Source: Escherichia coli (GTDB lineage Bacteria; Pseudomonadota; Gammaproteobacteria; Enterobacterales; Enterobacteriaceae). Taken from it: a stretch of DNA of 42,323 bases. A program made the position numbers and the translations under genes. Positions 245 to 39,720 of this stretch are shown here, one piece after another (within the stretch, counting starts at the first letter, position 1; every line of letters starts with the position of its first letter). The notes under the pieces were generated by a model. That model ran no database searches. It was not told the origin of the DNA and saw nothing but the letters and a program-made list of their open reading frames with translations. The stretch lies in assembly GCF_003334315.1 (NCBI RefSeq), contig NZ_QOWR01000043.1; one strand, given 5' to 3'.

Positions 245-2266
245 ATGCGTCTAAACCCCGGCCAACAACAAGCTGTCGAATTCGTTACCGGCCCCTGCCT
301 GGTGCTGGCGGGCGCGGGTTCCGGTAAAACTCGTGTTATCACCAATAAAATCGCCCATCTGATCCGCGGTTGCGGTTATCAGGCGCGGCACATTGCGGCG
401 GTGACCTTTACTAATAAAGCAGCGCGCGAGATGAAAGAGCGTGTAGGGCAGACGCTGGGGCGCAAAGAGGCGCGTGGGCTGATGATCTCCACTTTCCATA
501 CGTTGGGGCTGGATATCATCAAACGCGAGTATGCGGCGCTTGGGATGAAAGCGAACTTCTCGTTGTTTGACGATACCGATCAGCTTGCTTTGCTTAAAGA
601 GTTGACCGAGGGGCTGATTGAAGATGACAAAGTTCTCCTGCAACAACTGATTTCGACCATCTCTAACTGGAAGAATGATCTCAAAACACCGTCCCAGGCG
701 GCAGCAAGTGCGATTGGCGAGCGGGACCGTATTTTTGCCCATTGTTATGGGCTGTATGATGCACACCTGAAAGCCTGTAACGTTCTCGACTTCGATGATC
801 TGATTTTATTGCCGACGTTGCTGCTGCAACGCAATGAAGAAGTCCGCGAGCGCTGGCAGAACAAAATTCGCTACCTGCTGGTGGACGAATATCAGGACAC
901 CAACACCAGCCAGTATGAACTAGTGAAACTGCTGGTGGGCAGCCGCGCGCGCTTTACCGTGGTGGGTGACGATGACCAGTCGATCTACTCCTGGCGCGGT
1001 GCACGTCCGCAAAACCTGGTGCTGCTGAGTCAGGATTTTCCGGTGCTGCAGGTGATTAAGCTTGAGCAGAACTACCGCTCTTCCGGACGTATTTTGAAAG
1101 CGGCGAACATCCTGATCGCCAATAATCCGCACGTCTTTGAAAAGCGTCTGTTCTCCGAACTGGGTTACGGCACAGAGCTAAAAGTTTTAAGCGCGAATAA
1201 CGAGGAACATGAAGCCGAGCGCGTTACTGGCGAGCTTATCGCCCATCACTTCGTCAATAAAACGCAGTACAAAGATTACGCCATTCTTTATCGCGGTAAC
1301 CATCAGTCGCGGGTGTTTGAAAAATTCCTGATGCAAAACCGCATCCCGTACAAAATTTCTGGTGGTACGTCGTTTTTCTCTCGTCCTGAAATCAAGGACT
1401 TGCTGGCTTATCTGCGCGTGCTGACTAACCCGGATGATGACAGCGCATTTCTGCGTATCGTTAACACGCCGAAGCGAGAGATTGGCCCGGCGACGCTGAA
1501 AAAGCTGGGTGAGTGGGCGATGACGCGCAATAAAAGCATGTTTACCGCCAGCTTTGATATGGGCCTGAGTCAGACGCTTAGCGGACGTGGTTATGAAGCA
1601 TTGACCCGCTTCACTCACTGGTTGGCAGAAATCCAGCGCCTGGCGGAGCGGGAGCCGATTGCTGCGGTGCGTGATCTGATCCATGGCATGGATTATGAAT
1701 CCTGGCTGTACGAAACATCGCCCAGCCCGAAAGCTGCCGAAATGCGCATGAAGAACGTCAACCAACTGTTTAGCTGGATGACGGAGATGCTCGAAGGCAG
1801 CGAACTGGATGAGCCGATGACGCTCACCCAGGTGGTGACGCGCTTTACTTTACGCGACATGATGGAGCGTGGTGAGAGTGAAGAAGAGCTGGATCAGGTG
1901 CAACTGATGACTCTCCACGCGTCAAAAGGGCTGGAGTTTCCTTATGTCTACATGGTCGGTATGGAAGAAGGGTTTTTGCCACACCAGAGCAGTATCGATG
2001 AAGATAATATCGATGAGGAGCGGCGGCTGGCCTATGTCGGCATTACCCGCGCCCAGAAGGAATTGACCTTTACGCTGTGTAAAGAACGCCGTCAGTACGG
2101 CGAACTGGTGCGCCCGGAGCCGAGCCGCTTCCTGCTGGAGCTGCCGCAGGATGATCTGATTTGGGAACAGGAGCGCAAAGTGGTCAGTGCCGAAGAACGG
2201 ATGCAGAAAGGGCAAAGCCATCTGGCGAATCTGAAAGCGATGATGGCGGCAAAACGAGGGAAATAA
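245..2266 (+). CDS. rep: ATP-dependent DNA helicase Rep (SF1 helicase), 673 aa
   Basis: ORF 194..2266; recognised Rep N-terminus [31 protein letters not shown] begins at ATG 245; Walker A GAGSGKT and helicase motifs visible; upstream ORF extension lacks homology. Confidence 0.95.
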
Positions 2267-2270
2267 TCAA

Positions 2271-2304
2271 GGCCGGAGAAGATGCGTCAGCATCGCATCC
2301 GGCA
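2271..2304. repeat. REP (repetitive extragenic palindromic) element between convergent rep and gppA
   Basis: Palindromic GC-rich unit ggccggagaagatgcgtcagcatcgcatccggca; the same 24-mer recurs at 23876..23899. Confidence 0.8.
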
Positions 2305-2312
2305 CTTACTCA

Positions 2313-3797
2313 TTAATGCACTTCTAGCGGCCAGTGGACATAGCTCTGCCACTGGCTTTCCTGAGCAATAATCTCTTTACCCAGCGGATGTTGGGTTAGC
2401 CAACCTTGCGGAAGCGTCAAGGTCAACAGTTCATGGTTAGCCTGTAATGTCATCTCTGGCACGAGATCGTCACGGCGACGGCTGGCAAAAATGATGGCCA
2501 GGCGGAGTAAACGGCAGAGTTGTTCTGCGACGCGCGGCGGTACGGCATTTTGCTGATGCAGCGATGAGAGATCGACCGGATTAGTCTGGTTGAGCAGTAG
2601 CGTCGCCAGCAATTTTTTCTGTGCGGGGGTAAAACCGGGAAGATCCAGATTACGCACCAGATAAGCAGCGTGTTGCGGCGCTTGTTTGAAGTCAACGCTC
2701 AGGCCGATTTCATGAAGCTGACAGGCGCTGATGAGCAAATCGCGGCTTATTGCTTCAAGATGCCATTCCTTTTCCACCTGATCGAAGAAGTTAGCCGCAA
2801 CTTTGGCTACGCGCTGCGCCTGATCAATATCGATCATAAAGCGGCGCTGAATATTACGCAGCGTACGGCTGCGAATATCCTGCTCGACGGTAAGATGCAA
2901 CATACCGTAGACCAGACCTTCACGCAGCGCACCGCCCGCCAGGGTCATACACTGAATATTCAGTTCGGTAAAAATGGCAATCAGGATCGCCAGACCACTC
3001 GGGAACACTAACGCACGTTCCAGCGTCAGCCCGTCAATCTCCAGTTCCTCCAGCCGACCGCAATGAATGGCTCGCTGTTTCAATTGCTGCAACTTTTCCA
3101 GGGTAATGCGTTCATCCATCCCCTGTGCCATCATGATTTCCTGTAACGCCTGCACGGTGCCGGAAGCACCAACGCACACTTTCCAGCCGTGATACCGTAA
3201 TTCATCGGCAACCGGACGTAACACTTCGCGTGCCGCTTTTTCTGCAGCATCAAAATTTTCCTGCCCCAGATTACGATCGGCAAAATAGCGTTCCAGCCAG
3301 GTAACGCAGCCCATCGACAGGCTGAACAACGAGGTGGTTTGTGCACCCGTGCCGGTTACCAGTTCAGTACTGGCACCGCCTATATCCACCACCAGGCGCT
3401 GATCGGCACCGCCAGTTGTGTGAGCAACGCCCTGATAAATCAGACGTGCTTCCTCTTCACCGCTGATCACCTGTACCGGACAACCGAGGATTTCCTGCGC
3501 TTTGGCAATAAAATCACCCGCATTGACGGCAAGACGTAATGTCGCCGTAGCGACAACGCGAATTTGCGAGGGAGGGATATCTTGCAGACGTTCAGCAAAC
3601 AGGCGCAGACATTGCCAACCGCGCTCCATTGCTTCATTAGACAGGGCATTTTCGCTATTCAGGCCAGCAGCCAGACGCACTTTGCGTTTTATTCGCGTCA
3701 GCGTCTGGATGCTTCCAGCCACCTCGCGCACAACCAGCATATGAAAACTATTCGAACCGAGATCAATGGCTGCATACAGCGACGAGGTGGAACCCAT
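2313..3797 (-). CDS. gppA: Guanosine pentaphosphate phosphohydrolase / exopolyphosphatase GppA, 494 aa
   Basis: ORF 2313..3806 minus; recognised start [20 protein letters not shown] at the internal Met (3 codons into the ORF); Ppx/GppA family. Confidence 0.93.
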
Positions 3798-3930
3798 ACT
3801 CTTCATCCTTCAATCTGTCTCTGTGTTGGCTGCATTCTTTCACCTGAATCACTTACTACAGTATGCTCATCGGGATTCATTCTCTTGCCATCTTGATACA
3901 GTTTGAATGATTTTGAGTATGACATTTTAT

Positions 3931-5196
3931 TTAACCTGAACGACGACGATTACGCGGAGCGCCAGTACGACGCGGACCATTGCCTGTACGTGGGCGCGTG
4001 AGGCGCAGCGGTTTTGGCAGATCGGTCATCAATGCGTCCGGATTGTATTTGCTTACCGGAATTGAGTGACCAATATAGGTCTCAATAGCAGGCAAATTCA
4101 ATGCATACTCTTCACACGCCAGGCTGATAGAGTGACCGCTTGCGCCTGCGCGACCTGTACGACCAATACGGTGAACGTAATCTTCACAGTCATCGGGTAA
4201 ATCGTAGTTAAAGACGTGCGTCACTGCCGGAATATGCAAACCACGCGCGGCAACGTCGGTGGCAACCAGAATATCCAGATCGCCACGGGTAAATTCATCA
4301 AGAATACGCAGACGTTTTTTCTGCGCGACATCGCCTGTCAACAAACCGACACGATGACCATCTGCCGCCAGGTGGCCCCAGATCTCTTCACAACGGTGTT
4401 TGGTATTGGCGAAAATAATCGCTCTGTCTGGCCACTCTTCTTCGATCAGCGTTTGCAGCAAACGCATTTTTTCTTCGTTAGAAGGGTAGAAAAGCTCTTC
4501 TTTAATACGGTGGCCCGTTTTCTGTTCCGGTTCCACTTCAATATATTCGGCATTGTTCATCTGCTCGAACGCCAGTTCACGTACCCGGTACGAAAGCGTG
4601 GCGGAGAACAGCATGTTGAGGCGCTGGTTTGCAGGCGGCATACGGCGGAACAGCCAGCGGATATCTTTAATAAAGCCCAGATCGTACATGCGATCGGCTT
4701 CGTCCAGTACCACTACCTGAATGGCACCGAGGTTAATATGGTTCTGCTTGGCATAGTCAATTAAACGACCCGTGGTGCCAATCAGAATGTCAACGCCGCT
4801 TTCCAGCACTTTCAGCTGTTTGTCGTAGCCATCACCACCGTAAGCCAGACCCAGCTTCAGGCCAGTAGCTTCCGCCAGCGGTTCTGCGTCGGCATGGATC
4901 TGCACGGCAAGTTCACGCGTCGGTGCCATAATTAAGGCACGCGGTTGATTCACCTTGCGATCGGCAATCGCAGGATGAGAGAGAAGATAATGAAACGTTG
5001 ACGTAAGAAACGCCATCGTTTTCCCGGTACCGGTTTGCGCCTGCCCGGCTACGTCACGACCCGCCAGCGTCAGCGGAAGGGCCAGTGCCTGAATGGGCGT
5101 ACAGTTATGAAACCCTTTTTTTTCAAGGGCTTCTACAACCTTCGGATGCAGGGCGAAGTCGGAAAACTTCTGTTCTGTTAAATGTGTTTTGCTCAT
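3931..5196 (-). CDS. rhlB: ATP-dependent RNA helicase RhlB (DEAD-box, degradosome component), 421 aa
   Basis: ORF 3931..5196 minus; DEAD-box motifs (GTGKT, DEAD in [12 protein letters not shown]); Arg-rich C-terminal tail. Confidence 0.95.
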
Positions 5197-5326
5197 AGTG
5201 TGGTAGAATATCAGCTTACTATTGCTTTACGAAAGCGTATCCGGTGAAATAAAGTCAACCTTTAGTTGGTTAATGTTACACCAACAACGAAACCAACACG
5301 CCAGGCTTATTCCTGTGGAGTTATAT

Positions 5327-5656
5327 ATGAGCGATAAAATTATTCACCTGACTGACGACAGTTTTGACACGGATGTACTCAAAGCGGACGGGGCGATCCT
5401 CGTCGATTTCTGGGCAGAGTGGTGCGGTCCGTGCAAAATGATCGCCCCGATTCTGGATGAAATCGCTGACGAATATCAGGGCAAACTGACCGTTGCAAAA
5501 CTGAACATCGATCAAAACCCTGGCACTGCGCCGAAATATGGCATCCGTGGTATCCCGACTCTGCTGCTGTTCAAAAACGGTGAAGTGGCGGCAACCAAAG
5601 TGGGTGCACTGTCTAAAGGTCAGTTGAAAGAGTTCCTCGACGCTAACCTGGCGTAA
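5327..5656 (+). CDS. trxA: Thioredoxin 1, 109 aa
   Basis: ORF 5222..5656; canonical start [18 protein letters not shown] at ATG 5327; WCGPC active site present. Confidence 0.97.
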
Positions 5657-5725
5657 GGGAATTTCATGTTCGGGTGCCCCGTCGCTAAAAACTGGACGCC
5701 CGGCGTGAGTCATGCTAACTTAGTG

Positions 5726-5754
5726 TTGACTTCGTATTAAACATACCTTATTAA
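5726..5754 (+). promoter_or_regulatory. Candidate sigma70 promoter for rhoL-rho (TTGACT, 17-bp spacer, TATTAA)
   Basis: -35-like ttgact at 5726..5731 and -10-like tattaa at 5749..5754, about 45 bp upstream of rhoL; motif inspection only. Confidence 0.35.
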
Positions 5755-5796
5755 GTTTGAATCTTGTAATTTCCAACGCTTCCCGTTTTATCTTAA

Positions 5797-5898
5797 ATGC
5801 GAAGTGAACAGATTTCTGGCTCGTCACTCAATCCGTCTTGTCGTTTCAGTTCTGCGTACTCTCCTGTGACCAGGCAGCGAAAAGACATGAGTCGATGA
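5797..5898 (+). CDS. rhoL: rho operon leader peptide, 33 aa
   Basis: Short ORF MRSEQISGSSLNPSCRFSSAYSPVTRQRKDMSR read directly from sequence, immediately upstream of rho; not in the supplied ORF track. Confidence 0.75.
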   Translation: MRSEQISGSSLNPSCRFSSAYSPVTRQRKDMSR

Positions 5899-5982
5899 CC
5901 GTAAACAGGCATGGATGATCCTGCCATACCATTCACAACATTAAGTTCGAGATTTACCCCAAGTTTAAGAACTCACACCACT

Positions 5983-7242
5983 ATGAATCTTACCGAATTA
6001 AAGAATACGCCGGTTTCTGAGCTGATCACTCTCGGCGAAAATATGGGGCTGGAAAACCTGGCTCGTATGCGTAAGCAGGACATTATTTTTGCCATCCTGA
6101 AGCAGCACGCAAAGAGTGGCGAAGATATCTTTGGTGATGGCGTACTGGAGATATTGCAGGATGGATTTGGTTTCCTCCGTTCCGCAGACAGCTCCTACCT
6201 CGCCGGTCCTGATGACATCTACGTTTCCCCTAGCCAAATCCGCCGTTTCAACCTCCGCACTGGTGATACCATCTCTGGTAAGATTCGCCCGCCGAAAGAA
6301 GGTGAACGCTATTTTGCGCTGCTGAAAGTTAACGAAGTTAACTTCGACAAACCTGAAAACGCCCGCAACAAAATCCTCTTTGAGAACTTAACCCCGCTGC
6401 ACGCAAACTCTCGTCTGCGTATGGAACGTGGTAACGGTTCTACTGAAGATTTAACTGCTCGCGTACTGGATCTGGCATCACCTATCGGTCGTGGTCAGCG
6501 TGGTCTGATTGTGGCACCGCCGAAAGCCGGTAAAACCATGCTGCTGCAGAACATTGCTCAGAGCATTGCTTACAACCACCCGGATTGTGTGCTGATGGTT
6601 CTGCTGATCGACGAACGTCCGGAAGAAGTAACCGAGATGCAGCGTCTGGTAAAAGGTGAAGTTGTTGCTTCTACCTTTGACGAACCCGCATCTCGCCACG
6701 TTCAGGTTGCGGAAATGGTGATCGAGAAGGCCAAACGCCTGGTTGAGCACAAGAAAGACGTTATCATTCTGCTCGACTCCATCACTCGTCTGGCGCGCGC
6801 TTACAACACTGTTGTTCCGGCGTCAGGTAAAGTGTTGACCGGTGGTGTGGACGCCAATGCCCTTCATCGTCCGAAACGCTTCTTCGGTGCGGCGCGTAAC
6901 GTGGAAGAGGGCGGCAGCCTGACCATTATCGCGACGGCGCTTATCGATACCGGTTCTAAAATGGACGAAGTTATTTACGAAGAGTTTAAAGGTACAGGCA
7001 ACATGGAACTGCACCTCTCTCGTAAGATCGCTGAAAAACGCGTCTTCCCGGCTATCGACTACAACCGTTCCGGTACCCGTAAAGAAGAACTGCTCACTAC
7101 TCAGGAAGAACTGCAGAAAATGTGGATCCTGCGCAAAATCATTCACCCGATGGGCGAAATCGATGCAATGGAATTCCTCATTAATAAACTGGCCATGACC
7201 AAGACCAATGACGATTTCTTCGAAATGATGAAACGCTCATAA
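5983..7242 (+). CDS. rho: Transcription termination factor Rho, 419 aa
   Basis: ORF 5911..7242; canonical start [19 protein letters not shown] at ATG 5983; Walker A PPKAGKT present. Confidence 0.97.
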
Positions 7243-7257
7243 ATTTGTCTTATGCCA

Positions 7258-7293
7258 AAAACGCCACGTGTTTACGTGGCGTTTTGCTTTTAT
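7258..7293 (+). terminator. Rho-independent terminator downstream of rho
   Basis: Hairpin aaaacgccacgtg-ttta-cgtggcgtttt followed by a T-rich tract, 15 bp after the rho stop. Confidence 0.8.
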
Positions 7294-7481
7294 ATCTGTA
7301 ATCTTAATGCCGCGCTGGCGATGTTAGGAAAATTCCTGGAATTTGCTGGCATATTATGCAATTTGCATATCAAATGGTTAATTTTTGCACAGGACTGGTG
7401 GGTTCGGAACGGACTTTCCCTTCTGAATAAAGGTCTTCGTGGTTATACTTCTGCTAATAATTTTCTCTGAGAGCATGCATT

Positions 7482-8585
7482 GTGAATTTACTGACAGTGA
7501 GTACTGATCTCATCAGTATTTTTTTATTCACGACACTGTTTCTGTTTTTTGCCCGTAAGGTGGCAAAAAAAGTCGGTTTAGTGGATAAACCAAACTTCCG
7601 CAAACGTCACCAGGGGTTGATACCACTCGTTGGGGGTATTTCGGTTTACGCAGGGATTTGCTTCACGTTCGGAATTGTCGATTACTATATTCCGCATGCA
7701 TCTCTCTATCTCGCTTGTGCCGGTGTGCTTGTTTTCATTGGCGCGCTGGATGACCGTTTTGATATCAGCGTAAAAATCCGTGCCACCATACAGGCCGCTG
7801 TTGGCATTGTTATGATGGTGTTTGGCAACCTTTATCTCAGTAGCCTGGGTTATATCTTTGGCTCCTGGGAGATGGTGCTCGGACCGTTTGGTTACTTCCT
7901 GACGCTATTTGCCGTCTGGGCGGCCATTAATGCGTTCAACATGGTTGATGGCATTGATGGCTTGCTGGGCGGGTTGTCCTGCGTCTCGTTTGCAGCAATC
8001 GGTATGATTTTGTGGTTCGACGGGCAAACCAGCCTCGCAATCTGGTGCTTTGCGATGATCGCCGCCATCCTGCCATATATCATGCTTAACCTTGGTATCC
8101 TGGGTCGCCGCTACAAAGTCTTTATGGGTGATGCGGGCAGTACGCTGATTGGTTTTACCGTGATCTGGATCCTGCTCGAAACGACCCAGGGCAAAACCCA
8201 TCCCATCAGCCCGGTTACCGCTTTGTGGATAATCGCCATTCCGCTAATGGATATGGTGGCGATTATGTACCGTCGCCTGCGTAAAGGCATGAGCCCATTC
8301 TCTCCTGACCGTCAGCATATTCACCATTTGATCATGCGTGCCGGGTTTACTTCCCGTCAGGCGTTTGTGCTGATTACCCTTGCCGCAGCACTGCTCGCTT
8401 CCATTGGCGTGCTGGCAGAATATTCTCATTTTGTCCCGGAGTGGGTCATGCTGGTGCTCTTTTTGCTAGCATTCTTCCTCTATGGATATTGCATTAAGCG
8501 TGCCTGGAAAGTTGCTCGCTTTATTAAGCGCGTAAAACGCAGACTGCGTAGAAATCGTGGTGGCAGCCCCAATTTAACCAAATAA
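7482..8585 (+). CDS. wecA: UDP-GlcNAc:undecaprenyl-phosphate GlcNAc-1-phosphate transferase WecA, 367 aa
   Basis: ORF 7482..8585 with GTG start; polytopic membrane protein; first gene of the ECA cluster. Confidence 0.93.
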   Translation: MNLLTVSTDLISIFLFTTLFLFFARKVAKKVGLVDKPNFRKRHQGLIPLVGGISVYAGICFTFGIVDYYIPHASLYLACAGVLVFIGALDDRFDISVKIRATIQAAVGIVMMVFGNLYLSSLGYIFGSWEMVLGPFGYFLTLFAVWAAINAFNMVDGIDGLLGGLSCVSFAAIGMILWFDGQTSLAIWCFAMIAAILPYIMLNLGILGRRYKVFMGDAGSTLIGFTVIWILLETTQGKTHPISPVTALWIIAIPLMDMVAIMYRRLRKGMSPFSPDRQHIHHLIMRAGFTSRQAFVLITLAAALLASIGVLAEYSHFVPEWVMLVLFLLAFFLYGYCIKRAWKVARFIKRVKRRLRRNRGGSPNLTK

Positions 8586-8596
8586 ATGAGGATGTG

Positions 8597-9643: not shown

Positions 9644-9698
9644 CAACACTGCTGCGGTGAGCGCAAAGGCGCTCGCCGCTTATTCGAAGAGAATCGAT

Positions 9699-13155: not shown

Positions 13156-13173
13156 TTTTCAGCGGAGGCAAAC

Positions 13174-14707: not shown

Positions 14708-14711
14708 TCAC

Positions 14712-20452: not shown

Positions 20453-21838
20453 ATGGCAGATAACAAACCAGAGCTACAGCGTGGGCTGGAAGCTCGACAT
20501 ATCGAACTCATCGCCCTGGGGGGCACCATTGGCGTCGGCCTGTTTATGGGGGCCGCCAGTACCCTGAAATGGGCCGGGCCATCCGTATTGTTGGCCTATA
20601 TCATCGCCGGGCTGTTCGTCTTTTTCATCATGCGTTCAATGGGCGAAATGTTGTTCCTCGAACCGGTTACCGGTTCGTTCGCCGTTTATGCGCATCGTTA
20701 TATGAGCCCGTTCTTTGGCTATCTCACCGCCTGGTCTTACTGGTTTATGTGGATGGCGGTGGGGATCTCTGAAATCACCGCCATTGGCGTTTATGTCCAG
20801 TTCTGGTTCCCGGAGATGGCGCAGTGGATACCCGCATTGATCGCAGTGGCGCTGGTGGCGTTGGCGAATCTGGCGGCGGTGCGGTTGTACGGCGAAATCG
20901 AGTTCTGGTTCGCGATGATCAAAGTCACCACGATTATCGTGATGATTGTCATTGGCCTGGGCGTGATTTTCTTTGGCTTTGGCAATGGCGGGCAGTCGAT
21001 TGGTTTTAGCAATCTCACAGAGCATGGCGGTTTCTTTGCGGGTGGCTGGAAAGGGTTCCTGACCGCTCTGTGTATTGTGGTGGCGTCCTACCAGGGCGTG
21101 GAGCTGATTGGCATTACTGCCGGTGAAGCGAAGAATCCGCAGGTGACGCTGCGCAGTGCCGTAGGCAAGGTGCTGTGGCGGATCCTGATTTTCTACGTAG
21201 GCGCGATTTTCGTTATCGTCACCATCTTCCCGTGGAATGAAATAGGCAGCAACGGCAGCCCGTTCGTACTGACTTTTGCCAAAATCGGTATTACCGCAGC
21301 GGCGGGCATTATCAACTTTGTGGTGCTGACGGCTGCGCTCTCTGGCTGTAACAGCGGCATGTACAGTTGCGGACGTATGCTCTACGCACTGGCGAAAAAC
21401 CGTCAGTTACCGGCGGCAATGGCGAAAGTTTCCCGTCACGGCGTACCGGTTGCGGGTGTGGCAGTATCTATTGCTATTCTGCTAATTGGCTCATGCCTGA
21501 ACTACATCATTCCCAATCCGCAGCGTGTGTTTGTCTACGTCTACAGTGCCAGCGTGCTTCCGGGGATGGTGCCATGGTTTGTGATATTGATAAGCCAGCT
21601 GCGTTTTCGGCGTGCACATAAAGCGGCGATTGCCAGCCATCCGTTCCGCTCAATCCTGTTCCCGTGGGCCAATTACGTAACAATGGCATTCCTGATTTGC
21701 GTTTTGATCGGCATGTACTTTAATGAAGATACGCGTATGTCGCTGTTTGTTGGCATCATCTTTATGCTGGCGGTGACGGCGATTTATAAAGTTTTTGGCC
21801 TTAATCGCCACGGGAAAGCGCATAAACTGGAGGAATAA
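20453..21838 (+). CDS. yifK: Amino acid permease (APC superfamily) YifK, 461 aa
   Basis: ORF 20453..21838; 12-TM amino acid permease fold. Confidence 0.93.
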
Positions 21839-21890
21839 GCAGCAAAACGCACAAACCGTAACCAAACGCGCAATTTATTTAAAAAGGGAC

Positions 21891-21940: not shown

Positions 21941-22017
<77 letters not shown>

Positions 22018-22074
22018 TTTAGTCCCGGCGCTTGAGCTGCGGTGGTAGTAATACCGCGTAACAAGATTTGTAGT

Positions 22075-22151
22075 GGTGGCTATAGCTCAGTTGGTAGAGC
22101 CCTGGATTGTGATTCCAGTTGTCGTGGGTTCGAATCCCATTAGCCACCCCA
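22075..22151 (+). tRNA. hisR: tRNA-His (anticodon GUG), with extra 5' G(-1)
   Basis: ggtggctatagctcagttggtagagccctggattgtgattccag...ggttcgaatcccattagccacccca. Confidence 0.95.
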
Positions 22152-22171
22152 TTATTAGAAGTTGTGACAAT

Positions 22172-22258
22172 GCGAAGGTGGCGGAATTGGTAGACGCGCT
22201 AGCTTCAGGTGTTAGTGTCCTTACGGACGTGGGGGTTCAAGTCCCCCCCCTCGCACCA
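22172..22258 (+). tRNA. leuT: tRNA-Leu (anticodon CAG), class II with long variable arm
   Basis: gcgaaggtggcggaattggtagacgcgctagcttcaggtgttag...gggggttcaagtcccccccctcgcacca. Confidence 0.95.
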
Positions 22259-22300
22259 CGACTTTAAAGAATTGAACTAAAAATTCAAAAAGCAGTATTT

Positions 22301-22377
22301 CGGCGAGTAGCGCAGCTTGGTAGCGCAACTGGTTTGGGACCAGTGGGTCGGAGGTTCGAATCCTCTCTCGCCGACCA
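22301..22377 (+). tRNA. proM: tRNA-Pro (anticodon UGG)
   Basis: cggcgagtagcgcagcttggtagcgcaactggtttgggaccag...ggttcgaatcctctctcgccgacca. Confidence 0.95.
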
Positions 22378-25582: not shown

Positions 25583-26006
25583 GCAAAATGCTCCGGTTTC
25601 ATGTCATCAAAATGATGACGTAATTAAGCATTGATAATTGAGATCCCTCTCCCTGACAGGATGATTACATAAATAATAGTGACAAAAATAAATTATTTAT
25701 TTATCCAGAAAATGAATTGGAAAATCAGGAGAGCGTTTTCAATCCTACCTCTGGCGCAGTTGATATGTAAGGCAGGTTTATTATATCGCGTTGATTATTG
25801 ATGCTGTTTTTAGTTTTAACGGCAATTAATATATGTGTTATTAATTGAATGAATTTTATCATTCATAATAAGTATGTGTAGGATCAAGCTCAGGTTAAAT
25901 ATTCACTCAGGAAGTTATTACTCAGGAAGCAAAGAGGATTACAGAATTATCTCATAACAAGTGTTAAGGGATGTTATTTCCCGATTCTCTGTGGCATAAT
26001 AAACGA

Positions 26007-26203
26007 GTAGATGCTCATTCCATCTCTTATGTTCGCCTTAGTGCCTCATAAACTCCGGAATGACGCAGAGCCGTTTACGGTGCTTATCGTCCACTGACAG
26101 ATGTCGCTTATGCCTCATCAGACACCATGGACACAACGTTGAGTGAAGCACCCACTTGTTGTCATACAGACCTGTTTTAACGCCTGCTCCGTAATAAGAG
26201 CAG
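26007..26203 (+). ncRNA. glmZ: Small regulatory RNA GlmZ (activator of glmS translation); ends approximate
   Basis: ORF-free stretch beginning gtagatgctcattccatctcttatgttcgcc, preceded by a cataat -10 (25995..26000) and ending in terminator gcctgctccgtaataagagcaggc + T7; matches the GlmZ sequence as I recall it, in the aslA-hemY intergenic region. Confidence 0.8.
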
Positions 26204-26260
26204 GCGTTTTTTTATGTGTCAGGAAGGCCCCGGAGGTGCTTGCCCCCGGGTGAGAAGGAA

Positions 26261-27457: not shown

Positions 27458-27459
27458 GG

Positions 27460-28641
27460 TTATTCTCCTTGCGGCGCGGCTGCCGGAGTATCAGCTTGCG
27501 GTGCAGGTGCAGGTTTAGCTTCCGTTGCCCCTGCTGTCGGTTGTGCCAGCAGGTTACGCACGCGAGTCTGCATCAGTTTTTCCAGCATCGCCTGGCTTTG
27601 CAGGGTTTCCGGAAGATCCATCGAGATATTTTGCTGGCTTAACTGGTCCACCTCGTCGAGGAACGCTTTGGTGGTGGCATCATCAGTATCGTAGTAAGCA
27701 CGTACCCAGGTGGAGACGTTCTCCAGCGCCTGGCGATAAGTCTCTTCCTGGTGACGCGGTACAGCTTGTGCTGCGACCAGCAGGCGAGAGCGAATATTTT
27801 CGCGCAGATAGATATCCTGATTTGGCGCTAACAGCGGTACGGCGGTGTCATCACGACGGCGAATCGTAATGAAGTTGTCCATAAAGTTCTGCCAGCTTTT
27901 TTGCAGATTGATACGCCATTCGCTGATGGAACTGGAAAGCTCTTCACCGTCTGAATCCATCGGCGAACCATCGCTGTCATTATCGGCCAGACGCAGGTTA
28001 TCTACCTGATTTGAAAGCTGATTAAGCTTAAGGATGATGCCGTCATAATCCACCTGCGATACTGCAGAAAGGCTGGCGATATCATCGGTAATTGCCCGAC
28101 GAACGGTAATCAGACTCGGGTCATTCATATCCGCCAGGCTGGCGTCTGCACTTTTCAGCAACGCTGCAGCGGTCGTGACGTCCTGATCGCTCCACAGCTT
28201 CCGTCCGGCGAGTTTCACCAGAAAATCGGCCTGAGCCAGCAGCCAGGTTTTAGCATCGCTGCCGGAAATGGTGGCGACCTTTTGTTGGACCTCATCCAAC
28301 TGTTTTGCCAGCGTTTCTTGCTGACGATTCGCCTGCTTAAGCTGTGCAGCTTGTTGCTTAATAATGCCTTCCAGCTCGGCTTTTTGGCTCTCCTGGGCTT
28401 TTTGCAATGCCGTCAGTTGGTTAGCCAGGGCATCGCTGGTGGCGGTCTGATTGACGGCCTGTTGTTTACCCCAGCCATACAAACCGACGCCCGCCGCCAG
28501 AGCAATAGCGATAGCCACCGCGCTGAGAATCAATGCGGTATTGTTCTTACTCTTTTTTTCTGTTGCGACAGGTTGTGACGTGGTGTCCACGGCCTCCCTG
28601 GTCTCTTCAACCACGGCGGAGGTTTTTTCTTGTTCCGTCAT
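27460..28641 (-). CDS. hemX: HemX protein (membrane protein with coiled-coil/Ala-Gln-rich region), 393 aa
   Basis: ORF 27460..28641 minus; low-complexity AQ-rich central region; hem operon context. Confidence 0.93.
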
Positions 28642-28662
28642 TATGGCTTCCTGTTATGAGAG

Positions 28663-30341: not shown

Positions 30342-30727
30342 GCTTGTTACCGTCATTATCATCCGTGGTCCATCCTAACATCCTTGCCAGAGTGATGTCA
30401 GTGTTGTGGTGAAACGTAGACGCCTGCGCAAACCGTAAAATGAGGTCTGGCAGTGGATCCTGACAGGCGTTTCACGCCGTTGTAATAAGGAATTTACAGA
30501 GAATAAACGGTGCTACACTTGTATGTAGCGCATCTTTCTTTACGGTCAATCAGCAAGGTGTTAAATTGATCACGTTTTAGACCATTTTTTCGTCGTGAAA
30601 CTAAAAAAACCAGGCGCGAAAAGTGGTAACGGTTACCTTTGACATACGAAATATCCCGAATGCCGCGTGTTACCGTTGATGTTGGCGGAATCACAGTCAT
30701 GACGGGTAGCAAATCAGGCGATACGTC

Positions 30728-33274
30728 TTGTACCTCTATATTGAGACTCTGAAACAGAGACTGGATGCCATAAATCAATTGCGTGTGGATCGCGCGCTTG
30801 CTGCTATGGGGCCTGCATTCCAACAGGTCTACAGTCTACTGCCGACATTGTTGCACTATCACCATCCGCTAATGCCGGGTTACCTTGATGGTAACGTTCC
30901 CAAAGGCATTTGCCTTTACACGCCTGATGAAACTCAACGCCACTACCTGAACGAGCTTGAACTGTATCGTGGAATGTCAGTACAGGATCCGCCGAAAGGT
31001 GAGCTTCCAATTACTGGTGTATACACCATGGGCAGCACCTCGTCCGTAGGGCAAAGTTGTTCCTCTGACCTGGATATCTGGGTCTGTCATCAATCCTGGC
31101 TCGATAGCGAAGAGCGCCAATTGCTACAACGTAAATGTAGCCTGCTGGAAAACTGGGCCGCCTCGCTGGGTGTGGAAGTCAGCTTCTTCCTGATTGATGA
31201 AAACCGCTTCCGTCATAATGAAAGCGGCAGCCTGGGGGGCGAAGATTGTGGCTCCACCCAGCATATACTGCTGCTTGACGAATTTTATCGTACCGCCGTG
31301 CGTCTCGCCGGTAAGCGTATTCTGTGGAATATGGTGCCGTGCGACGAAGAAGAGCATTACGACGACTATGTGATGACGCTTTACGCGCAGGGCGTGCTGA
31401 CGCCAAATGAATGGCTGGATCTCGGTGGCTTAAGCTCGCTTTCTGCTGAAGAGTACTTTGGTGCCAGCCTTTGGCAGCTCTACAAGAGTATCGATTCCCC
31501 ATACAAAGCGGTACTGAAAACACTGCTGCTGGAAGCCTATTCCTGGGAATACCCGAACCCACGTCTGCTGGCGAAAGATATCAAACAGCGTTTGCACGAC
31601 GGCGAGATTGTATCGTTTGGTCTCGATCCATACTGCATGATGCTGGAGCGTGTTACTGAATACCTGACGGCGATTGAAGATTTTACCCGTCTGGATTTAG
31701 TACGTCGCTGCTTCTATTTAAAAGTGTGCGAAAAGCTCAGCCGTGAACGCGCCTGCGTAGGCTGGCGTCGCGCAGTGTTGAGCCAGTTAGTGAGCGAGTG
31801 GGGTTGGGACGAAGCTCGTCTGGCAATGCTCGATAACCGCGCTAACTGGAAGATTGATCAGGTGCGTGAGGCGCACAACGAGTTGCTCGACGCGATGATG
31901 CAGAGCTACCGTAATCTGATCCGCTTTGCGCGTCGCAATAACCTTAGCGTCTCCGCCAGTCCGCAGGATATCGGCGTGCTGACGCGTAAGCTGTATGCCG
32001 CGTTTGAAGCATTACCAGGTAAAGTGACGCTGGTAAACCCGCAGATTTCACCCGATCTCTCGGAACCGAATCTGACCTTTATTTGTGTGCCGCCGGGCCG
32101 GGCTAACCGTTCAGGTTGGTATCTGTATAACCGCGCGCCAAATATTGAGTCGATCATCAGCCATCAGCCGCTGGAATATAACCGTTACCTGAATAAACTG
32201 GTGGCGTGGGCATGGTTTAACGGCCTGCTGACCTCGCGCACCCGTTTGTATATTAAAGGTAACGGCATTGTCGATTTGCCTAAGTTGCAGGAGATGGTCG
32301 CCGACGTGTCGCACCATTTCCCGCTGCGCTTACCTGCACCGACACCGAAGGCGCTCTACAGCCCGTGTGAGATCCGCCATCTGGCGATTATCGTTAACCT
32401 GGAATATGACCCGACAGCGGCGTTCCGCAATCAGGTGGTGCATTTCGATTTCCGTAAGCTGGATGTCTTCAGCTTTGGCGAGAATCAAAATTGCCTGGTA
32501 GGTAGCGTTGACCTGCTGTACCGCAACTCGTGGAACGAAGTGCGTACGCTGCACTTCAACGGCGAGCAATCGATGATCGAAGCCCTGAAAACTATTCTCG
32601 GCAAAATGCATCAGGACGCCGCACCGCCAGATAGCGTGGAAGTCTTCTGTTATAGCCAGCATCTGCGCGGCTTAATTCGTACTCGCGTGCAGCAACTGGT
32701 TTCTGAGTGTATTGAATTGCGTCTTTCCAGCACCCGCCAGGAAACCGGGCGTTTCAAGGCGCTGCGCGTTTCTGGTCAAACCTGGGGGTTGTTCTTCGAA
32801 CGCCTGAATGTATCGGTACAGAAACTGGAAAACGCCATCGAGTTTTATGGCGCGATTTCGCATAACAAACTGCACGGCCTGTCAGTGCAGGTTGAAACCA
32901 ATCACGTCAAATTACCGGCGGTGGTGGACGGCTTTGCCAGCGAAGGGATCATCCAGTTCTTTTTCGAAGAAACGCAAGACGAGAATGGCTTTAATATCTA
33001 CATTCTCGACGAAAGCAACCGGGTTGAGGTATATCACCACTGCGAAGGCAGCAAAGAGGAGCTGGTACGTGACGTCAGTCGCTTCTACTCGTCATCGCAT
33101 GACCGTTTTACCTACGGCTCAAGCTTCATCAACTTCAACCTGCCGCAGTTCTATCAGATTGTGAAGGTTGATGGTCGTGAACAGGTGATTCCGTTCCGCA
33201 CAAAATCTATCGGTAACATGCCGCCTGCCAATCAGGATCACGATACGCCGCTATTACAGCAATATTTTTCGTGA
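30728..33274 (+). CDS. cyaA: Adenylate cyclase (class I) CyaA, 848 aa, TTG start codon
   Basis: ORF 30728..33274 begins at ttg; N-terminus [32 protein letters not shown] recognised; divergent from hemC. Confidence 0.95.
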
Positions 33275-33313
33275 TGAACGTGCCGGAAAGCGAGGCTTAT
33301 CCGGCATGCAATC

Positions 33314-33634
33314 TTAGCGGAAACTGACTGTTTCACCCGCCTGCTGCGTCGCCGCCTGTTCCAGCAAATCCCAGAAGGTTTCGCCGCTGCGATCACAAAT
33401 CCACTCATCGCCTTTCAGGTCAAAATGGTAGCCGCCCTGTTTGGTTGCCAGCCATACCTGGTGCAGCGGCTCCTGGCGGTTGATAATGATTTTGCTGCCA
33501 TTCTCAAAGGTAATGGTCAGTACGCCGCCGTTGATTTCGCAGTCGATATCGCTGTCGCCATCCCAGTCGTCCAGGCGTTCTTCAATGGTCAGCCAGAGTT
33601 GATCAGCCAGGCGATGAAATTCACTGTCGTTCAT
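33314..33634 (-). CDS. cyaY: Frataxin homolog CyaY (iron-sulfur cluster assembly), 106 aa
   Basis: ORF 33314..33634 minus; [33 protein letters not shown] acidic ridge typical of frataxin. Confidence 0.95.
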
Positions 33635-34096
33635 TGTTGTATCCTGTTTTTAAGTGATGGCGGCAGTATAGCGGCATGGGGTCAGGGCTTCAAAGTTTGC
33701 ACCTCTGCGGCTGCGTTCCGGCACGATTCATCCGTCACCGGAATAATGATGTCTCTGTGTAGCGAAAGATTTGTCTCTTCATTAGGGCGCAGTTACACCA
33801 CGTCTTTCCCTGTTTCTGGTAAACATTATGATCAGGTTTACCGAGCGAGCATCCTCACGCTGACGGAACTAAAAAAGACAACAAACAAACCACATTGCGA
33901 TAGTGCATAAAGCCATCCTGGCGCGAGGTGCCGATCACGAAACTACCAGCAAAACATAAATCCCCACGAGTAAGCGTTATACTCGCAGCATTTCCTCACT
34001 TTTCAGACTTCATAAAGAGTCGCTAAACGCTTGCTTTTACGTCTTCTCCTGCGATGATAGAAAGCAGAAAGCGATGAACTTTACAGGCAATCCATA

Positions 34097-34300
34097 ATGA
34101 AAAACGTGTTTAAGGCACTCACTGTATTACTTACTCTCTTCAGCCTGACGGGCTGCGGTCTGAAAGGTCCGCTCTATTTCCCGCCTGCAGATAAAAACGC
34201 ACCGCCGCCGACCAAACCGGTAGAGACGCAAACGCAATCCACGGTGCCGGATAAAAACGATCGCGCCACTGGCGATGGTCCATCCCAGGTGAATTACTAA
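34097..34300 (+). CDS. yifL: Small predicted lipoprotein YifL, 67 aa
   Basis: ORF 34097..34300; lipobox LTGC after a signal peptide; Pro-rich low-complexity tail. Confidence 0.85.
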   Translation: MKNVFKALTVLLTLFSLTGCGLKGPLYFPPADKNAPPPTKPVETQTQSTVPDKNDRATGDGPSQVNY

Positions 34301-34336
34301 AAGTCAGTTTCTGTACCCGCGTGATTGGAGTAAATG

Positions 34337-35161
34337 ATGCAGTTCTCGAAAATGCATGGCCTTGGCAACGATTTTATGGTCGTCGACGCGGTAACGCAGA
34401 ATGTCTTTTTTTCACCGGAGCTGATTCGTCGCCTGGCTGATCGGCACCTGGGGGTAGGGTTTGACCAACTGCTGGTGGTTGAGCCGCCGTATGATCCTGA
34501 ACTGGATTTTCACTATCGCATTTTCAATGCTGATGGCAGTGAAGTGGCGCAGTGCGGCAACGGTGCGCGCTGCTTTGCCCGTTTTGTGCGTCTGAAAGGA
34601 CTGACCAATAAGCGTGATATCCGCGTCAGCACCGCCAACGGGCGGATGGTTCTGACCGTCACCGATGATGATCTGGTCCGCGTAAATATGGGCGAACCCA
34701 ACTTCGAACCTTCCGCCGTGCCGTTTCGCGCTAACAAAGCGGAAAAGACCTATATTATGCGCGCCGCCGAGCAGACAATCTTATGCGGCGTGGTGTCGAT
34801 GGGAAATCCGCATTGCGTGATTCAGGTCGATGATGTCGATACCGCGGCGGTAGAAACGCTTGGTCCTGTTCTGGAAAGCCACGAGCGTTTTCCGGAGCGC
34901 GCCAATATCGGTTTTATGCAAGTGGTTAAGCGCGAGCATATTCGTTTACGCGTTTATGAGCGTGGGGCAGGAGAAACCCAGGCCTGCGGCAGCGGCGCGT
35001 GTGCGGCGGTTGCAGTAGGGATTCAGCAAGGTTTGCTGGCCGAAGAAGTACGCGTGGAACTCCCCGGCGGTCGTCTTGATATCGCCTGGAAAGGTCCGGG
35101 TCACCCGTTATATATGACTGGCCCGGCGGTACATGTCTACGACGGATTTATTCATCTATGA
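34337..35161 (+). CDS. dapF: Diaminopimelate epimerase DapF, 274 aa
   Basis: ORF 34334..35161; recognised start [17 protein letters not shown] at ATG 34337; catalytic Cys motifs (GNGARC, CGSGAC). Confidence 0.95.
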
Positions 35162-35865
35162 AGCAACCAGGGGAAGAACTGCAGGAAACACTCACGGAGC
35201 TTGATGACCGGGCGGTTGTCGATTATCTGATTAAAAATCCTGAGTTTTTTATCCGTAATGCGCGCGCAGTAGAAGCGATACGTGTGCCGCATCCGGTACG
35301 CGGCACCGTTTCGTTGGTCGAGTGGCACATGGCCCGCGCACGTAATCATATTCATGTTCTGGAAGAGAACATGGCGCTGTTGATGGAACAGGCTATCGCC
35401 AACGAAGGCCTGTTTTATCGCCTACTCTACCTGCAGCGCAGTCTCACCGCCGCCAGCAGTCTCGACGATATGCTGATGCGCTTTCACCGCTGGGCGCGCG
35501 ATCTCGGCCTGGCAGGTGCGAGTCTGCGCCTGTTTCCGGATCGCTGGCGCTTAGGTGCGCCGTCGAACCACACTCATCTGGCATTAAGCCGTCAGTCTTT
35601 CGAACCGCTGCGTATTCAGCGTTTGGGGCAGGAACAGCACTATCTTGGGCCGCTTAACGGACCAGAGCTGCTGGTGGTGCTACCGGAAGCGAAAGCGGTG
35701 GGATCGGTGGCGATGTCGATGCTGGGAAGCGATGCTGATTTGGGTGTCGTGCTGTTTACCAGTCGCGATGCCAGTCACTATCAACAAGGGCAAGGAACGC
35801 AGTTACTTCATGAAATTGCGCTGATGTTGCCGGAGCTTCTGGAGCGTTGGATTGAACGCGTATGA
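35158..35865 (+). CDS. yigA: DUF484-family protein YigA, 235 aa
   Basis: ORF 35158..35865; start overlaps dapF stop; conserved dapF-yigA-xerC-yigB arrangement. Confidence 0.9.
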
Positions 35866-36758
35866 CCGATTTACACACCGATGTAGAACGCTACCTACGT
35901 TATCTGAGCGTGGAGCGCCAGCTTAGCCCGATAACCCTGCTTAACTACCAGCGTCAGCTTGAGGCGATCATCAATTTTGCCAGCGAAAACGGCCTGCAAA
36001 GCTGGCAGCAATGTGATGTGACGATGGTGCGCAATTTTGCTGTACGCAGTCGCCGTAAAGGGCTGGGAGCAGCAAGTCTGGCGTTACGGCTTTCTGCGCT
36101 ACGTAGCTTTTTTGACTGGCTGGTCAGCCAGAACGAACTCAAAGCTAACCCGGCGAAAGGTGTTTCGGCACCGAAAGCGCCGCGTCATCTGCCGAAAAAC
36201 ATCGACGTCGACGATATGAATCGGCTGCTGGATATTGATATCAATGATCCCCTCGCTGTACGCGACCGTGCAATGCTGGAAGTGATGTACGGCGCGGGTC
36301 TGCGTCTTTCTGAGCTGGTGGGGCTGGATATTAAACACCTCGACCTGGAGTCTGGTGAAGTGTGGGTTATGGGGAAAGGCAGCAAAGAGCGCCGCCTGCC
36401 GATTGGTCGCAACGCTGTGGCGTGGATTGAGCACTGGCTTGATTTGCGCGACCTGTTTGGTAGCGAAGACGACGCGCTTTTTCTGTCGAAACTGGGCAAG
36501 CGTATCTCCGCGCGTAATGTGCAGAAACGCTTTGCCGAATGGGGCATAAAACAAGGGCTGAATAATCACGTTCATCCGCATAAATTACGTCACTCGTTCG
36601 CCACGCATATGCTGGAGTCGAGCGGCGATCTTCGTGGTGTGCAGGAGCTGCTGGGTCATGCCAACCTCTCCACCACGCAAATCTATACTCATCTTGATTT
36701 TCAACACCTTGCCTCGGTGTACGATGCGGCGCATCCACGCGCCAAACGGGGGAAATAA
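35862..36758 (+). CDS. xerC: Tyrosine site-specific recombinase XerC (chromosome dimer resolution), 298 aa
   Basis: ORF 35862..36758; conserved catalytic residues (R...HxxR...Y) near C-terminus: [10 protein letters not shown]...[14 protein letters not shown]. Confidence 0.95.
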
Positions 36759-37474
36759 TGCGTTTTTACCGGCCTTTGGGGCGCATCTCGGCGCTCACCT
36801 TTGACCTGGATGATACCCTTTACGATAACCGTCCGGTGATTTTGCGCACCGAGCGAGAGGCGCTTACCTTTGTGCAAAATTATCATCCGGCGCTGCGCAG
36901 CTTCCAGAATGAAGATCTGCAACGCCTGCGCCAGGCGGTACGGGAAGCGGAACCCGAGATTTATCACGACGTGACGCGCTGGCGTTTTCGTTCGATTGAA
37001 CAAGCGATGCTCGACGCCGGGCTGAGTGCCGAAGAAGCCAGTGCAGGCGCACACGCAGCAATGATCAACTTTGCCAAATGGCGCAGCCGAATCGACGTCC
37101 CGCAGCAAACTCACGACACCTTAAAACAGCTGGCGAAGAAATGGCCGCTGGTGGCGATCACCAACGGTAACGCCCAGCCGGAGCTGTTTGGTTTGGGGGA
37201 TTATTTTGAGTTTGTGCTGCGCGCTGGCCCGCACGGGCGCTCAAAACCGTTCAGCGATATGTACTTTTTGGCTGCGGAAAAACTCAACGTGCCGATCGGC
37301 GAGATCTTACATGTTGGGGACGATCTCACCACTGACGTGGGTGGGGCAATTCGCAGCGGAATGCAGGCTTGTTGGATCAGACCGGAAAATGGCGATCTGA
37401 TGCAAACCTGGGACAGCCGTTTACTGCCGCATCTGGAAATTTCCCGGTTGGCATCTCTGACCTCGCTGATATAA
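36758..37474 (+). CDS. yigB: HAD-superfamily phosphatase YigB (5-amino-6-(5-phospho-D-ribitylamino)uracil/FMN phosphatase), 238 aa
   Basis: ORF 36758..37474; HAD motif I DLDDTLYD near N-terminus. Confidence 0.9.
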
Positions 37475-37483
37475 TCAGCAAAT

Positions 37484-37499
37484 CTGTATATATACCCAG
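37484..37499. promoter_or_regulatory. LexA (SOS) box upstream of uvrD
   Basis: ctgtatatatacccag fits CTGT-N8-ACAG with one mismatch in the right arm, 58 bp upstream of the uvrD ATG. Confidence 0.75.
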
Positions 37500-37557
37500 C
37501 TTTTTGGCGGAGGGCGTTGCGCTTCTCCGCCCAACCTATTTTTACGCGGCGGTGCCA

Positions 37558-39720
37558 ATGGACGTTTCTTACCTGCTCGACAGCCTTAATGACAAACAGC
37601 GCGAAGCGGTGGCCGCGCCACGCAGCAACCTTCTGGTGCTGGCGGGCGCGGGCAGTGGTAAGACGCGCGTACTGGTGCATCGTATCGCCTGGTTGATGAG
37701 CGTGGAAAACTGCTCGCCATACTCGATTATGGCGGTGACGTTTACCAACAAAGCGGCGGCGGAGATGCGTCATCGTATCGGGCAACTGATGGGCACGAGC
37801 CAGGGCGGTATGTGGGTCGGCACCTTCCACGGGCTGGCGCACCGTTTGTTGCGTGCGCACCATATGGACGCCAATCTGCCGCAGGATTTCCAGATCCTCG
37901 ACAGTGAAGACCAGCTACGCCTGCTTAAGCGTCTGATCAAAGCCATGAACCTCGACGAGAAGCAGTGGCCGCCGCGGCAGGCAATGTGGTACATCAACAG
38001 CCAGAAAGATGAAGGCCTGCGTCCGCATCATATTCAAAGCTACGGTAATCCGGTGGAGCAGACCTGGCAGAAGGTGTATCAGGCGTATCAGGAAGCGTGT
38101 GACCGCGCGGGCCTGGTGGACTTCGCCGAGCTGCTGCTGCGCGCTCACGAGTTGTGGCTTAACAAGCCGCATATCCTGCAACACTACCGCGAACGTTTTA
38201 CCAATATCCTGGTGGACGAATTCCAGGATACCAACAACATTCAGTACGCGTGGATCCGCCTGCTGGCGGGCGACACCGGCAAAGTGATGATCGTCGGTGA
38301 TGACGACCAGTCAATCTACGGCTGGCGCGGGGCGCAGGTGGAGAATATTCAGCGTTTCCTTAATGATTTCCCCGGTGCCGAAACTATTCGTCTGGAGCAA
38401 AACTACCGCTCTACCAGCAATATTCTGAGCGCCGCTAACGCCCTGATTGAAAACAATAACGGGCGTCTGGGTAAAAAACTGTGGACCGATGGCGCGGACG
38501 GTGAGCCTATTTCCCTCTATTGCGCTTTTAACGAACTCGATGAAGCGCGTTTTGTGGTTAACCGCATCAAAACCTGGCAGGACAACGGCGGAGCGCTTGC
38601 CGAGTGCGCCATTCTCTACCGCAGCAACGCCCAGTCGCGGGTGCTCGAAGAGGCGTTATTGCAGGCCAGTATGCCGTACCGTATTTACGGCGGGATGCGC
38701 TTCTTCGAACGCCAGGAAATCAAAGATGCGCTCTCGTATCTGCGCCTGATTGCCAACCGCAACGACGACGCGGCCTTTGAGCGTGTGGTGAATACGCCAA
38801 CGCGGGGTATTGGTGACCGGACGCTGGACGTGGTACGTCAGACATCGCGCGATCGCCAGTTAACACTCTGGCAGGCATGTCGTGAGCTGTTGCAGGAAAA
38901 AGCCCTCGCCGGGCGAGCTGCCAGCGCCTTGCAGCGATTTATGGAATTAATCGACGCCTTAGCGCAGGAAACTGCCGATATGCCGCTGCATGTACAGACT
39001 GACCGGGTAATTAAAGACTCCGGCCTGCGTACCATGTATGAGCAGGAGAAGGGCGAAAAAGGTCAGACGCGTATCGAAAACTTAGAGGAACTGGTGACGG
39101 CAACGCGCCAGTTCAGCTACAACGAAGAAGACGAAGATTTAATGCCGCTGCAGGCGTTCCTCTCCCATGCGGCACTGGAAGCAGGTGAAGGGCAGGCGGA
39201 TACCTGGCAGGATGCGGTGCAGTTGATGACGCTACACTCGGCGAAAGGCCTGGAGTTCCCGCAGGTGTTTATCGTTGGTATGGAAGAGGGCATGTTCCCA
39301 AGCCAGATGTCGCTGGATGAAGGCGGGCGTCTGGAAGAAGAACGCCGTCTGGCCTACGTTGGCGTAACCCGCGCGATGCAGAAACTGACGCTGACCTACG
39401 CGGAAACCCGCCGTCTGTATGGTAAAGAGGTTTACCATCGCCCGTCGCGCTTTATCGGCGAGCTGCCGGAAGAGTGTGTGGAAGAGGTGCGCCTGCGCGC
39501 CACGGTAAGCCGCCCGGTCAGCCATCAGCGGATGGGTACGCCGATGGTCGAGAACGACAGCGGCTACAAGCTCGGCCAGCGCGTACGCCACGCTAAGTTT
39601 GGTGAAGGCACCATTGTCAATATGGAAGGCAGCGGTGAGCATAGCCGTTTGCAGGTGGCATTTCAGGGCCAGGGTATTAAATGGCTGGTGGCGGCATACG
39701 CCCGGCTGGAGTCGGTGTAA
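37558..39720 (+). CDS. uvrD: DNA helicase II UvrD (SF1 helicase; nucleotide excision and mismatch repair), 720 aa
   Basis: ORF 37369..39720; recognised start MDVSYLLDSLNDKQREAVAAP at ATG 37558; Walker A GAGSGKT; upstream in-frame extension overlaps yigB and the LexA box. Confidence 0.95.
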   Translation: MDVSYLLDSLNDKQREAVAAPRSNLLVLAGAGSGKTRVLVHRIAWLMSVENCSPYSIMAVTFTNKAAAEMRHRIGQLMGTSQGGMWVGTFHGLAHRLLRAHHMDANLPQDFQILDSEDQLRLLKRLIKAMNLDEKQWPPRQAMWYINSQKDEGLRPHHIQSYGNPVEQTWQKVYQAYQEACDRAGLVDFAELLLRAHELWLNKPHILQHYRERFTNILVDEFQDTNNIQYAWIRLLAGDTGKVMIVGDDDQSIYGWRGAQVENIQRFLNDFPGAETIRLEQNYRSTSNILSAANALIENNNGRLGKKLWTDGADGEPISLYCAFNELDEARFVVNRIKTWQDNGGALAECAILYRSNAQSRVLEEALLQASMPYRIYGGMRFFERQEIKDALSYLRLIANRNDDAAFERVVNTPTRGIGDRTLDVVRQTSRDRQLTLWQACRELLQEKALAGRAASALQRFMELIDALAQETADMPLHVQTDRVIKDSGLRTMYEQEKGEKGQTRIENLEELVTATRQFSYNEEDEDLMPLQAFLSHAALEAGEGQADTWQDAVQLMTLHSAKGLEFPQVFIVGMEEGMFPSQMSLDEGGRLEEERRLAYVGVTRAMQKLTLTYAETRRLYGKEVYHRPSRFIGELPEECVEEVRLRATVSRPVSHQRMGTPMVENDSGYKLGQRVRHAKFGEGTIVNMEGSGEHSRLQVAFQGQGIKWLVAAYARLESV

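Follow-up and report, generated by a model that had tools for sequence, protein, structure and literature searches.

Are the two superfamily 1 (SF1) helicase genes that lie on one strand of a short segment of the Escherichia coli chromosome the ordinary rep and uvrD of this species, or does the pair hold something altered in protein, regulation or history? The question is raised by a 42,323-nucleotide (nt) stretch of contig NZ_QOWR01000043.1 (RefSeq assembly GCF_003334315.1), here called the window, in which an earlier interpretation of the DNA letters alone (the sequence-only reading) had recognised Rep and UvrD as paralogues and had seen nothing to suggest a novel variant. We consider it nearly certain, with a probability of about 97%, that these are orthodox and intact E. 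coli rep and uvrD genes, ancient paralogues within the SF1A group of UvrD, Rep and PcrA, which occupy their usual places about 37 kb apart.

The identity of both genes is clear from curated equivalog families. The rep gene (245..2266, + strand) encodes 673 amino acids (aa) plus a stop codon, with the N terminus MRLNPGQQ, and its product scores 1530.5 bits on the NCBIfam model NF008172 ‘DNA helicase Rep’ (cut-off 1168), matching residues 1-672 of 673, and 1221.4 bits on TIGR01074 (cut-off 951). Likewise, uvrD (37558..39720, + strand) encodes 720 aa plus a stop codon, with the N terminus MDVSYLLD, and DNA helicase II, its product, scores 1423 bits on NF008743 ‘DNA helicase II’ (cut-off 965), matching all residues from 1 to 720, and 1413.7 bits on TIGR01075 (cut-off 1144). 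Neither protein passes on the models of the other: the UvrD models give Rep 575 and 552 bits and the Rep models give UvrD 610 and 485 bits, all under the respective cut-offs. The naming of the two genes in the sequence-only reading is thus borne out, and so are its coordinates, since position 245 is exactly the A of the rep ATG and position 39720 the final base of the uvrD TAA stop. Mechanically called open reading frames (ORFs) would place the start of rep at 194 and that of uvrD at 37369; both of these starts were dropped, because it is from 245 and 37558 that the products match the NCBIfam models and the crystallised proteins (PDB 1UAA for Rep, PDB 2IS1 for UvrD) over their full length. No frameshift, premature stop or loss of a motif was found in the ORF of either rep or uvrD.

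Comparison with the crystallised proteins also leaves little that is unusual. Rep has the same length as E. coli K-12 Rep (PDB 1UAA; NF008172/TIGR01074), 673 aa, and aligns with it from end to end, with all SF1 motifs identical and only five substitutions, none of which touches a motif: A196R, K202E, A267V, K269Q and A310T, the 1UAA residue being given first. Residues 619-673, including the DnaB-binding last 33, are the same as in 1UAA. One of the five, A267V (codon 267, window nt 1044, nonsynonymous), differs from E. coli strain CP53 as well as from 1UAA; it lies six residues ahead of motif IV (LEQNYRS, aa 273-279) and hits no conserved motif. UvrD differs from PDB 2IS1 (also 3LFU; NF008743/TIGR01075) at a single one of 680 crystallised residues, having A399 here versus V in 2IS1, and the uvrD DNA is 100% identical to that of CP53 and of several complete E. 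coli genomes.

The paralogy of the two proteins is equally plain. BLASTP aligns Rep 3-636 with UvrD 10-639 with 246 identities in 641 positions (38%), 56% positives, 399 bits and an E value of 9e-134. When Rep was compared with 50 shuffled versions of UvrD, the mean was 18.9 bits and the maximum 25 bits. The similarity thus stands far above background, and identity at background level, which had been named beforehand as the outcome that speaks against SF1 paralogy, is clearly ruled out. All seven motifs, I (Walker A), Ia, II (DExx), III, IV, V and VI, are intact and in canonical order in both proteins. In nucleotide coordinates, they lie at 299-337, 401-433, 881-904, 962-1003, 1061-1081, 1904-1942 and 2015-2053 in rep, and at 37633-37671, 37735-37767, 38212-38235, 38293-38334, 38392-38412, 39223-39261 and 39337-39375 in uvrD. 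The peptides quoted in the sequence-only reading are present in both proteins: a 13-residue peptide at Rep aa 19-31 and UvrD aa 26-38, VTFTNKAA[R/A]EM at Rep 53-63 and UvrD 60-70, and QNYRS within the longer LEQNYRS, at aa 273-279 of Rep and 279-285 of UvrD. The likeness had been described as a shared N-terminal architecture; such an architecture is present, but the homology is not just N-terminal and spans the entire helicase core.

The true architectural difference between the two proteins lies in their C-terminal tails, a Tudor domain in UvrD versus a DnaB-binding tail in Rep. In both proteins, Pfam domain PF00580 is followed by PF13361 (Rep: aa 3-266 at 6.6e-92 and aa 271-613 at 4.5e-78; UvrD: 2.2e-94 and 5.2e-84), and the Tudor domain PF21196 occurs only in UvrD, at aa 673-715 (E 4e-14); the Pfam search did not find PF21196 in Rep. 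The C-terminal 33 residues of Rep are known to bind DnaB (PMC3035471), and the tail encoded here, to judge from its sequence, is predicted to be of that DnaB-binding type. The Tudor domain of PcrA and UvrD is an RNA polymerase interaction module, and Rep, which is without it, does not bind RNA polymerase (PMC5397179). The SF1A core common to Rep and UvrD is also that of PcrA of Gram-positive bacteria (PDB 1PJR/3PJR; TIGR01073), and UvrD, like PcrA, carries a C-terminal Tudor domain. On the PcrA equivalog, Rep scores 659 and UvrD 814 bits, under the cut-off of 911, and both are therefore relatives of PcrA rather than members of its equivalog.

The genomic setting is that of E. coli at large. 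The window is a segment of the chromosome from rep to corA, and its positions 76-41989 align with strain CP53 in one block at 99.94% identity, the differences being 12 mismatches and one 12-nt indel across 41.9 kb. Gene order is collinear with that annotated in CP53: rep-gppA-rhlB-trxA-rhoL-rho, the wec/rff enterobacterial common antigen cluster, thrP (yifK) and the tRNA genes Arg-His-Leu-Pro, followed by aslB-aslA-hemYXDC-cyaA-cyaY-lptM-dapF-yigA-xerC-yigB-uvrD-yigE-ysgD-corA. This identity and order agree with the earlier impression that nothing here suggests a novel variant. At a coverage of at least 80%, all 5426 complete E. coli genomes carry uvrD and all but one (5425) carry rep. The two genes share the + strand, with a start-to-start distance of 37,313 nt. 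The statement that they bracket the window is nearly right: they do lie near both ends, but rep is preceded by 244 nt and uvrD is followed by 2.6 kb, the latter holding yigE, corA, a truncated yigF and the end of an IS1 element.

The two genes also differ in their regulatory sites. A symmetrised LexA weight matrix of 20 nt was built from 24 E. coli SOS boxes, the uvrD box being left out to avoid circularity; its training boxes score 13.9 to 28.0 bits, and exact background probabilities were computed for it. The top matrix site of the whole window, at 17.3 bits, is the uvrD box ATCTGTATATATACCCAGCT (37482..37501, no strand assigned), 57 nt upstream of the ATG. Its per-position probability is 6.5e-7, which corresponds to 0.028 expected sites per window and 1e-4 per 150-nt upstream region. 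The promoter study of an ultraviolet (UV) tiling-array paper lists uvrD with a LexA motif (PMC3009722), and the box in the window is identical to the motif given there, AAATCTGTATATATACCCAGCTTTT. The box starts 6 nt downstream of a candidate uvrD promoter (37448..37475, + strand) composed of TTGGCA, a 16-nt spacer and TATAAT with an extended -10 TG, which matches 11 of 12 positions in a sigma-70 consensus scan. The published E. coli uvrD LexA box, a candidate promoter and the Tudor C-terminal domain are thus all found in the uvrD of the window, and uvrD of this strain is predicted to be repressed by LexA through the box just 3' of its promoter, and so to be SOS-inducible.

Other candidate signals did not hold up. 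A simple search for CTGT-N8-ACAG allowing 1 mismatch gave 14 matches versus 12.6 expected; it is uninformative by itself and was replaced by the weight matrix scan. The second-best matrix site of the window, AACTGGAGGAATAAGCAGCA (21825-21844, 13.5 bits), falls at the 3' end of thrP/yifK, shortly before the tRNA operon, and was judged to be due to chance, as 0.26 such sites are expected per window, its score is under that of every training box and it is outside any promoter. In the uvrD leader, a GC-rich hairpin on the + strand (37506..37531, GGCGGAGGGCG...CGCTTCTCCGCC) is followed 8 nt later by a run of five T. The hairpin is part of the minimum-free-energy fold, and the 79-nt region that holds it is no more stable than shuffled sequences (z = 0.03), so that it was dropped as a statistically supported structure and retained as an attenuator candidate only. 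An attenuator of uvrD was reportedly described by Easton and Kushner in 1983, to which, we assume, this hairpin may correspond, as a candidate only.

The one feature near either gene that sets this strain apart from nearly all other E. coli is an insertion sequence (IS) close to rep. Alignments with ST540 and CP53 identify the first 77 nt of the window (1..77, - strand) as the terminal, left inverted-repeat end of an IS2-like element of the IS3 family. It adjoins rep upstream DNA at 77/78, 168 nt before the rep ATG, with a junction that reads ...CCAGTCTA followed by CGACCC, and it truncates the native rep upstream region. E. coli ST540 has an IS2 transposase gene at the same place, CP53 has none, and the junction occurs in only three records, all ST540, among the 5,426 complete genomes. 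The IS2-like end differs from the canonical IS2 of ST540 at 8 positions (window 33-50), and a shared junction with a differing IS2 points either to a hot spot that was hit twice or to the replacement of one IS2 variant by another.

Of the alternatives to a wholly orthodox pair, the one that survives best is that this insertion alters the expression of rep, and hence the balance between Rep and UvrD, in this strain, yet we regard it as unlikely. The IS end directly adjoins the rep upstream region at a rare junction, and IS3-family ends can influence neighbouring promoters. On the other hand, the rep ORF is intact, and the sole promoter-like site found lies between the junction and the ATG, in a stretch identical to that of IS-free strains. 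This candidate sigma-70 promoter (183..211, + strand), located downstream of the IS junction and 34 nt upstream of the ATG, comprises GTCACA, a 17-nt spacer and TACAAT with TG before the -10, and its 9 of 12 consensus positions are a pattern match only. Moreover, the transposase is read away from rep at the rep-side IS end, and therefore transcription of the transposase gene is not expected to run on into rep. That the element could change rep transcription so far as to shift the reliance of the strain on UvrD as a back-up accessory helicase is a slightly more doubtful proposition still.

Far less likely is SOS control of rep as well, exerted through a cryptic or degenerate LexA site that had been overlooked. 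A CTGT-N8-NCAG-like sequence, AACTGTCTGGAGATTCAGGG, does lie upstream of rep at 48-67, and it is the best matrix site there, but it reaches just 7.7 bits against a training-box minimum of 13.9, about 4 such sites are expected per window by chance, and it belongs to the terminal inverted repeat of the IS2-like element rather than to native rep DNA; as a candidate it was dropped. As the IS2-like element cuts off native DNA upstream of rep, the ppiC-rep spacer of CP53, which has no interruption, was scanned as well, and its best site, at 7.2 bits, is also at chance level. In addition, the passages of the UV tiling-array study covered here (PMC3009722) do not name rep among the genes that have a LexA motif. 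A search upstream of rep, which the sequence-only reading had proposed as a check, thus yields no site comparable to that of uvrD in either the window or IS-free CP53, and the view that only uvrD has a recognisable LexA box holds, at 17.3 bits for uvrD against at most 7.7 bits upstream of rep.

Least credible of all is a recent duplication, or ongoing gene conversion between linked copies, in place of ancient paralogy: the two genes do share a strand, are only 37 kb apart and have in common the exact 20-nt word CTGGTGCTGGCGGGCGCGGG (at 299 in rep and 37633 in uvrD), but their proteins are just 38% identical, each matches its own curated equivalog family and falls far under the cut-off on that of the other, their C-terminal domains differ, and the word codes for the invariant Walker A peptide, with no longer one shared by the two genes in about 2 kb. 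The genes thus bear no mark of recent duplication or gene conversion, and this explanation was rejected. That the same-strand linkage over about 37 kb is left over from the duplication that gave rise to rep is speculative, more so than an effect of the IS2-like element on rep, and we give these two proposals together little credence.

No observation contradicts the orthodox reading of the pair and its regulation, but three caveats apply. First, 15 of the 24 boxes behind the LexA matrix were seen in tables of PMC3009722. Second, when the window was shuffled 30 times by mononucleotides, the top random site now and then attained the score of the uvrD box, with a maximum of 18.6 bits; the call therefore rests on the position of the box and its identity to the published one, and not on the score alone. 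Third, any native rep transcription signals that lay beyond the IS2-like junction are displaced in this strain.

The remainder of the window holds a few observations in their own right. The IS ends at its two edges are the only strain-specific features. At the right edge, the last 203 nt (42121-42323) are the start of an IS1 element (GGTGATGCTGCCAACTTACTG...) inserted in yigF (DUF2628), downstream of corA. The same IS1/yigF junction recurs in 64 complete E. coli genomes, those of IS1-rich strains (at least 40 IS1 places), while in CP53, otherwise near-identical, an IS1 sits instead about 130 nt nearer to corA. The single indel relative to CP53, at window position 27514, falls in hemX (27460-28641, - strand): it is in frame, its 12 nt correspond to two GCAGGT units, and HemX has 393 aa in the window versus 397 aa in CP53, probably as a result of slippage in a short tandem repeat. 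According to the CP53 annotation, four genes of the window code for helicases or translocases that differ in class, namely Rep, UvrD, RhlB (3931-5196, - strand) and Rho (about 5983-7242, + strand). Rep and UvrD are of the SF1A class, RhlB is a DEAD-box RNA helicase and Rho is a hexameric transcription terminator. Three RNA features are in their usual E. coli positions: the thermometer in the TrxA 5' untranslated region (5257-5356; Rfam, 78.8 bits), the small RNA GlmZ (26007-26213; Rfam, 218 bits) and the tRNA operon Arg(CCG)-His-Leu(CAG)-Pro(UGG) (21941-22377; ARAGORN/Rfam).

What the pair would do in the cell can be drawn from the literature. Given their near-identity to crystallised and biochemically studied E. 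coli proteins, both Rep and UvrD are expected to translocate along single-stranded DNA and to unwind it in the 3'-to-5' direction in an ATP-dependent manner, using the same four-subdomain motor core. Their targeting, in contrast, would differ. The C-terminal tail of Rep would direct it to DnaB, the replicative helicase, and Rep at the fork would act as the main accessory replicative helicase, removing transcription complexes and other proteins ahead. UvrD would contact RNA polymerase through its Tudor domain, may serve nucleotide excision repair, mismatch repair and the removal of RecA filaments, and could partly substitute for Rep. Of the two, only uvrD would be released from LexA repression in the SOS response, rep being without such a site.

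Such partial substitution would be in line with the genetics of the pair, which had been summarised as the inviability of rep uvrD double mutants. This is correct on rich medium, but the defect is conditional and can be suppressed: Δrep ΔuvrD cells do not grow on rich medium and do grow on minimal medium (PMC4999830). Mutations in spoT that raise (p)ppGpp relieve this inviability in part, loss of RecF, RecO, RecR, RecQ or RecJ does so more weakly, and the RNA polymerase allele rpoB*35, which lowers transcriptional barriers to replication, provides a background in which Δrep ΔuvrD is viable (PMC4999830).

In summary, the relationship, regulation and genetic interaction of rep and uvrD are textbook knowledge, no novel variant is present, and the window adds nothing to this picture. 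Its useful results are negative ones, in that both genes are intact and orthodox, the SOS box of uvrD is canonical and rep is without one. The pair is a classic case of paralogous helicases that have a common motor and different targeting modules, and, judging from published work, it also exemplifies a conditional synthetic lethality that is tied to the conflict between replication and transcription.

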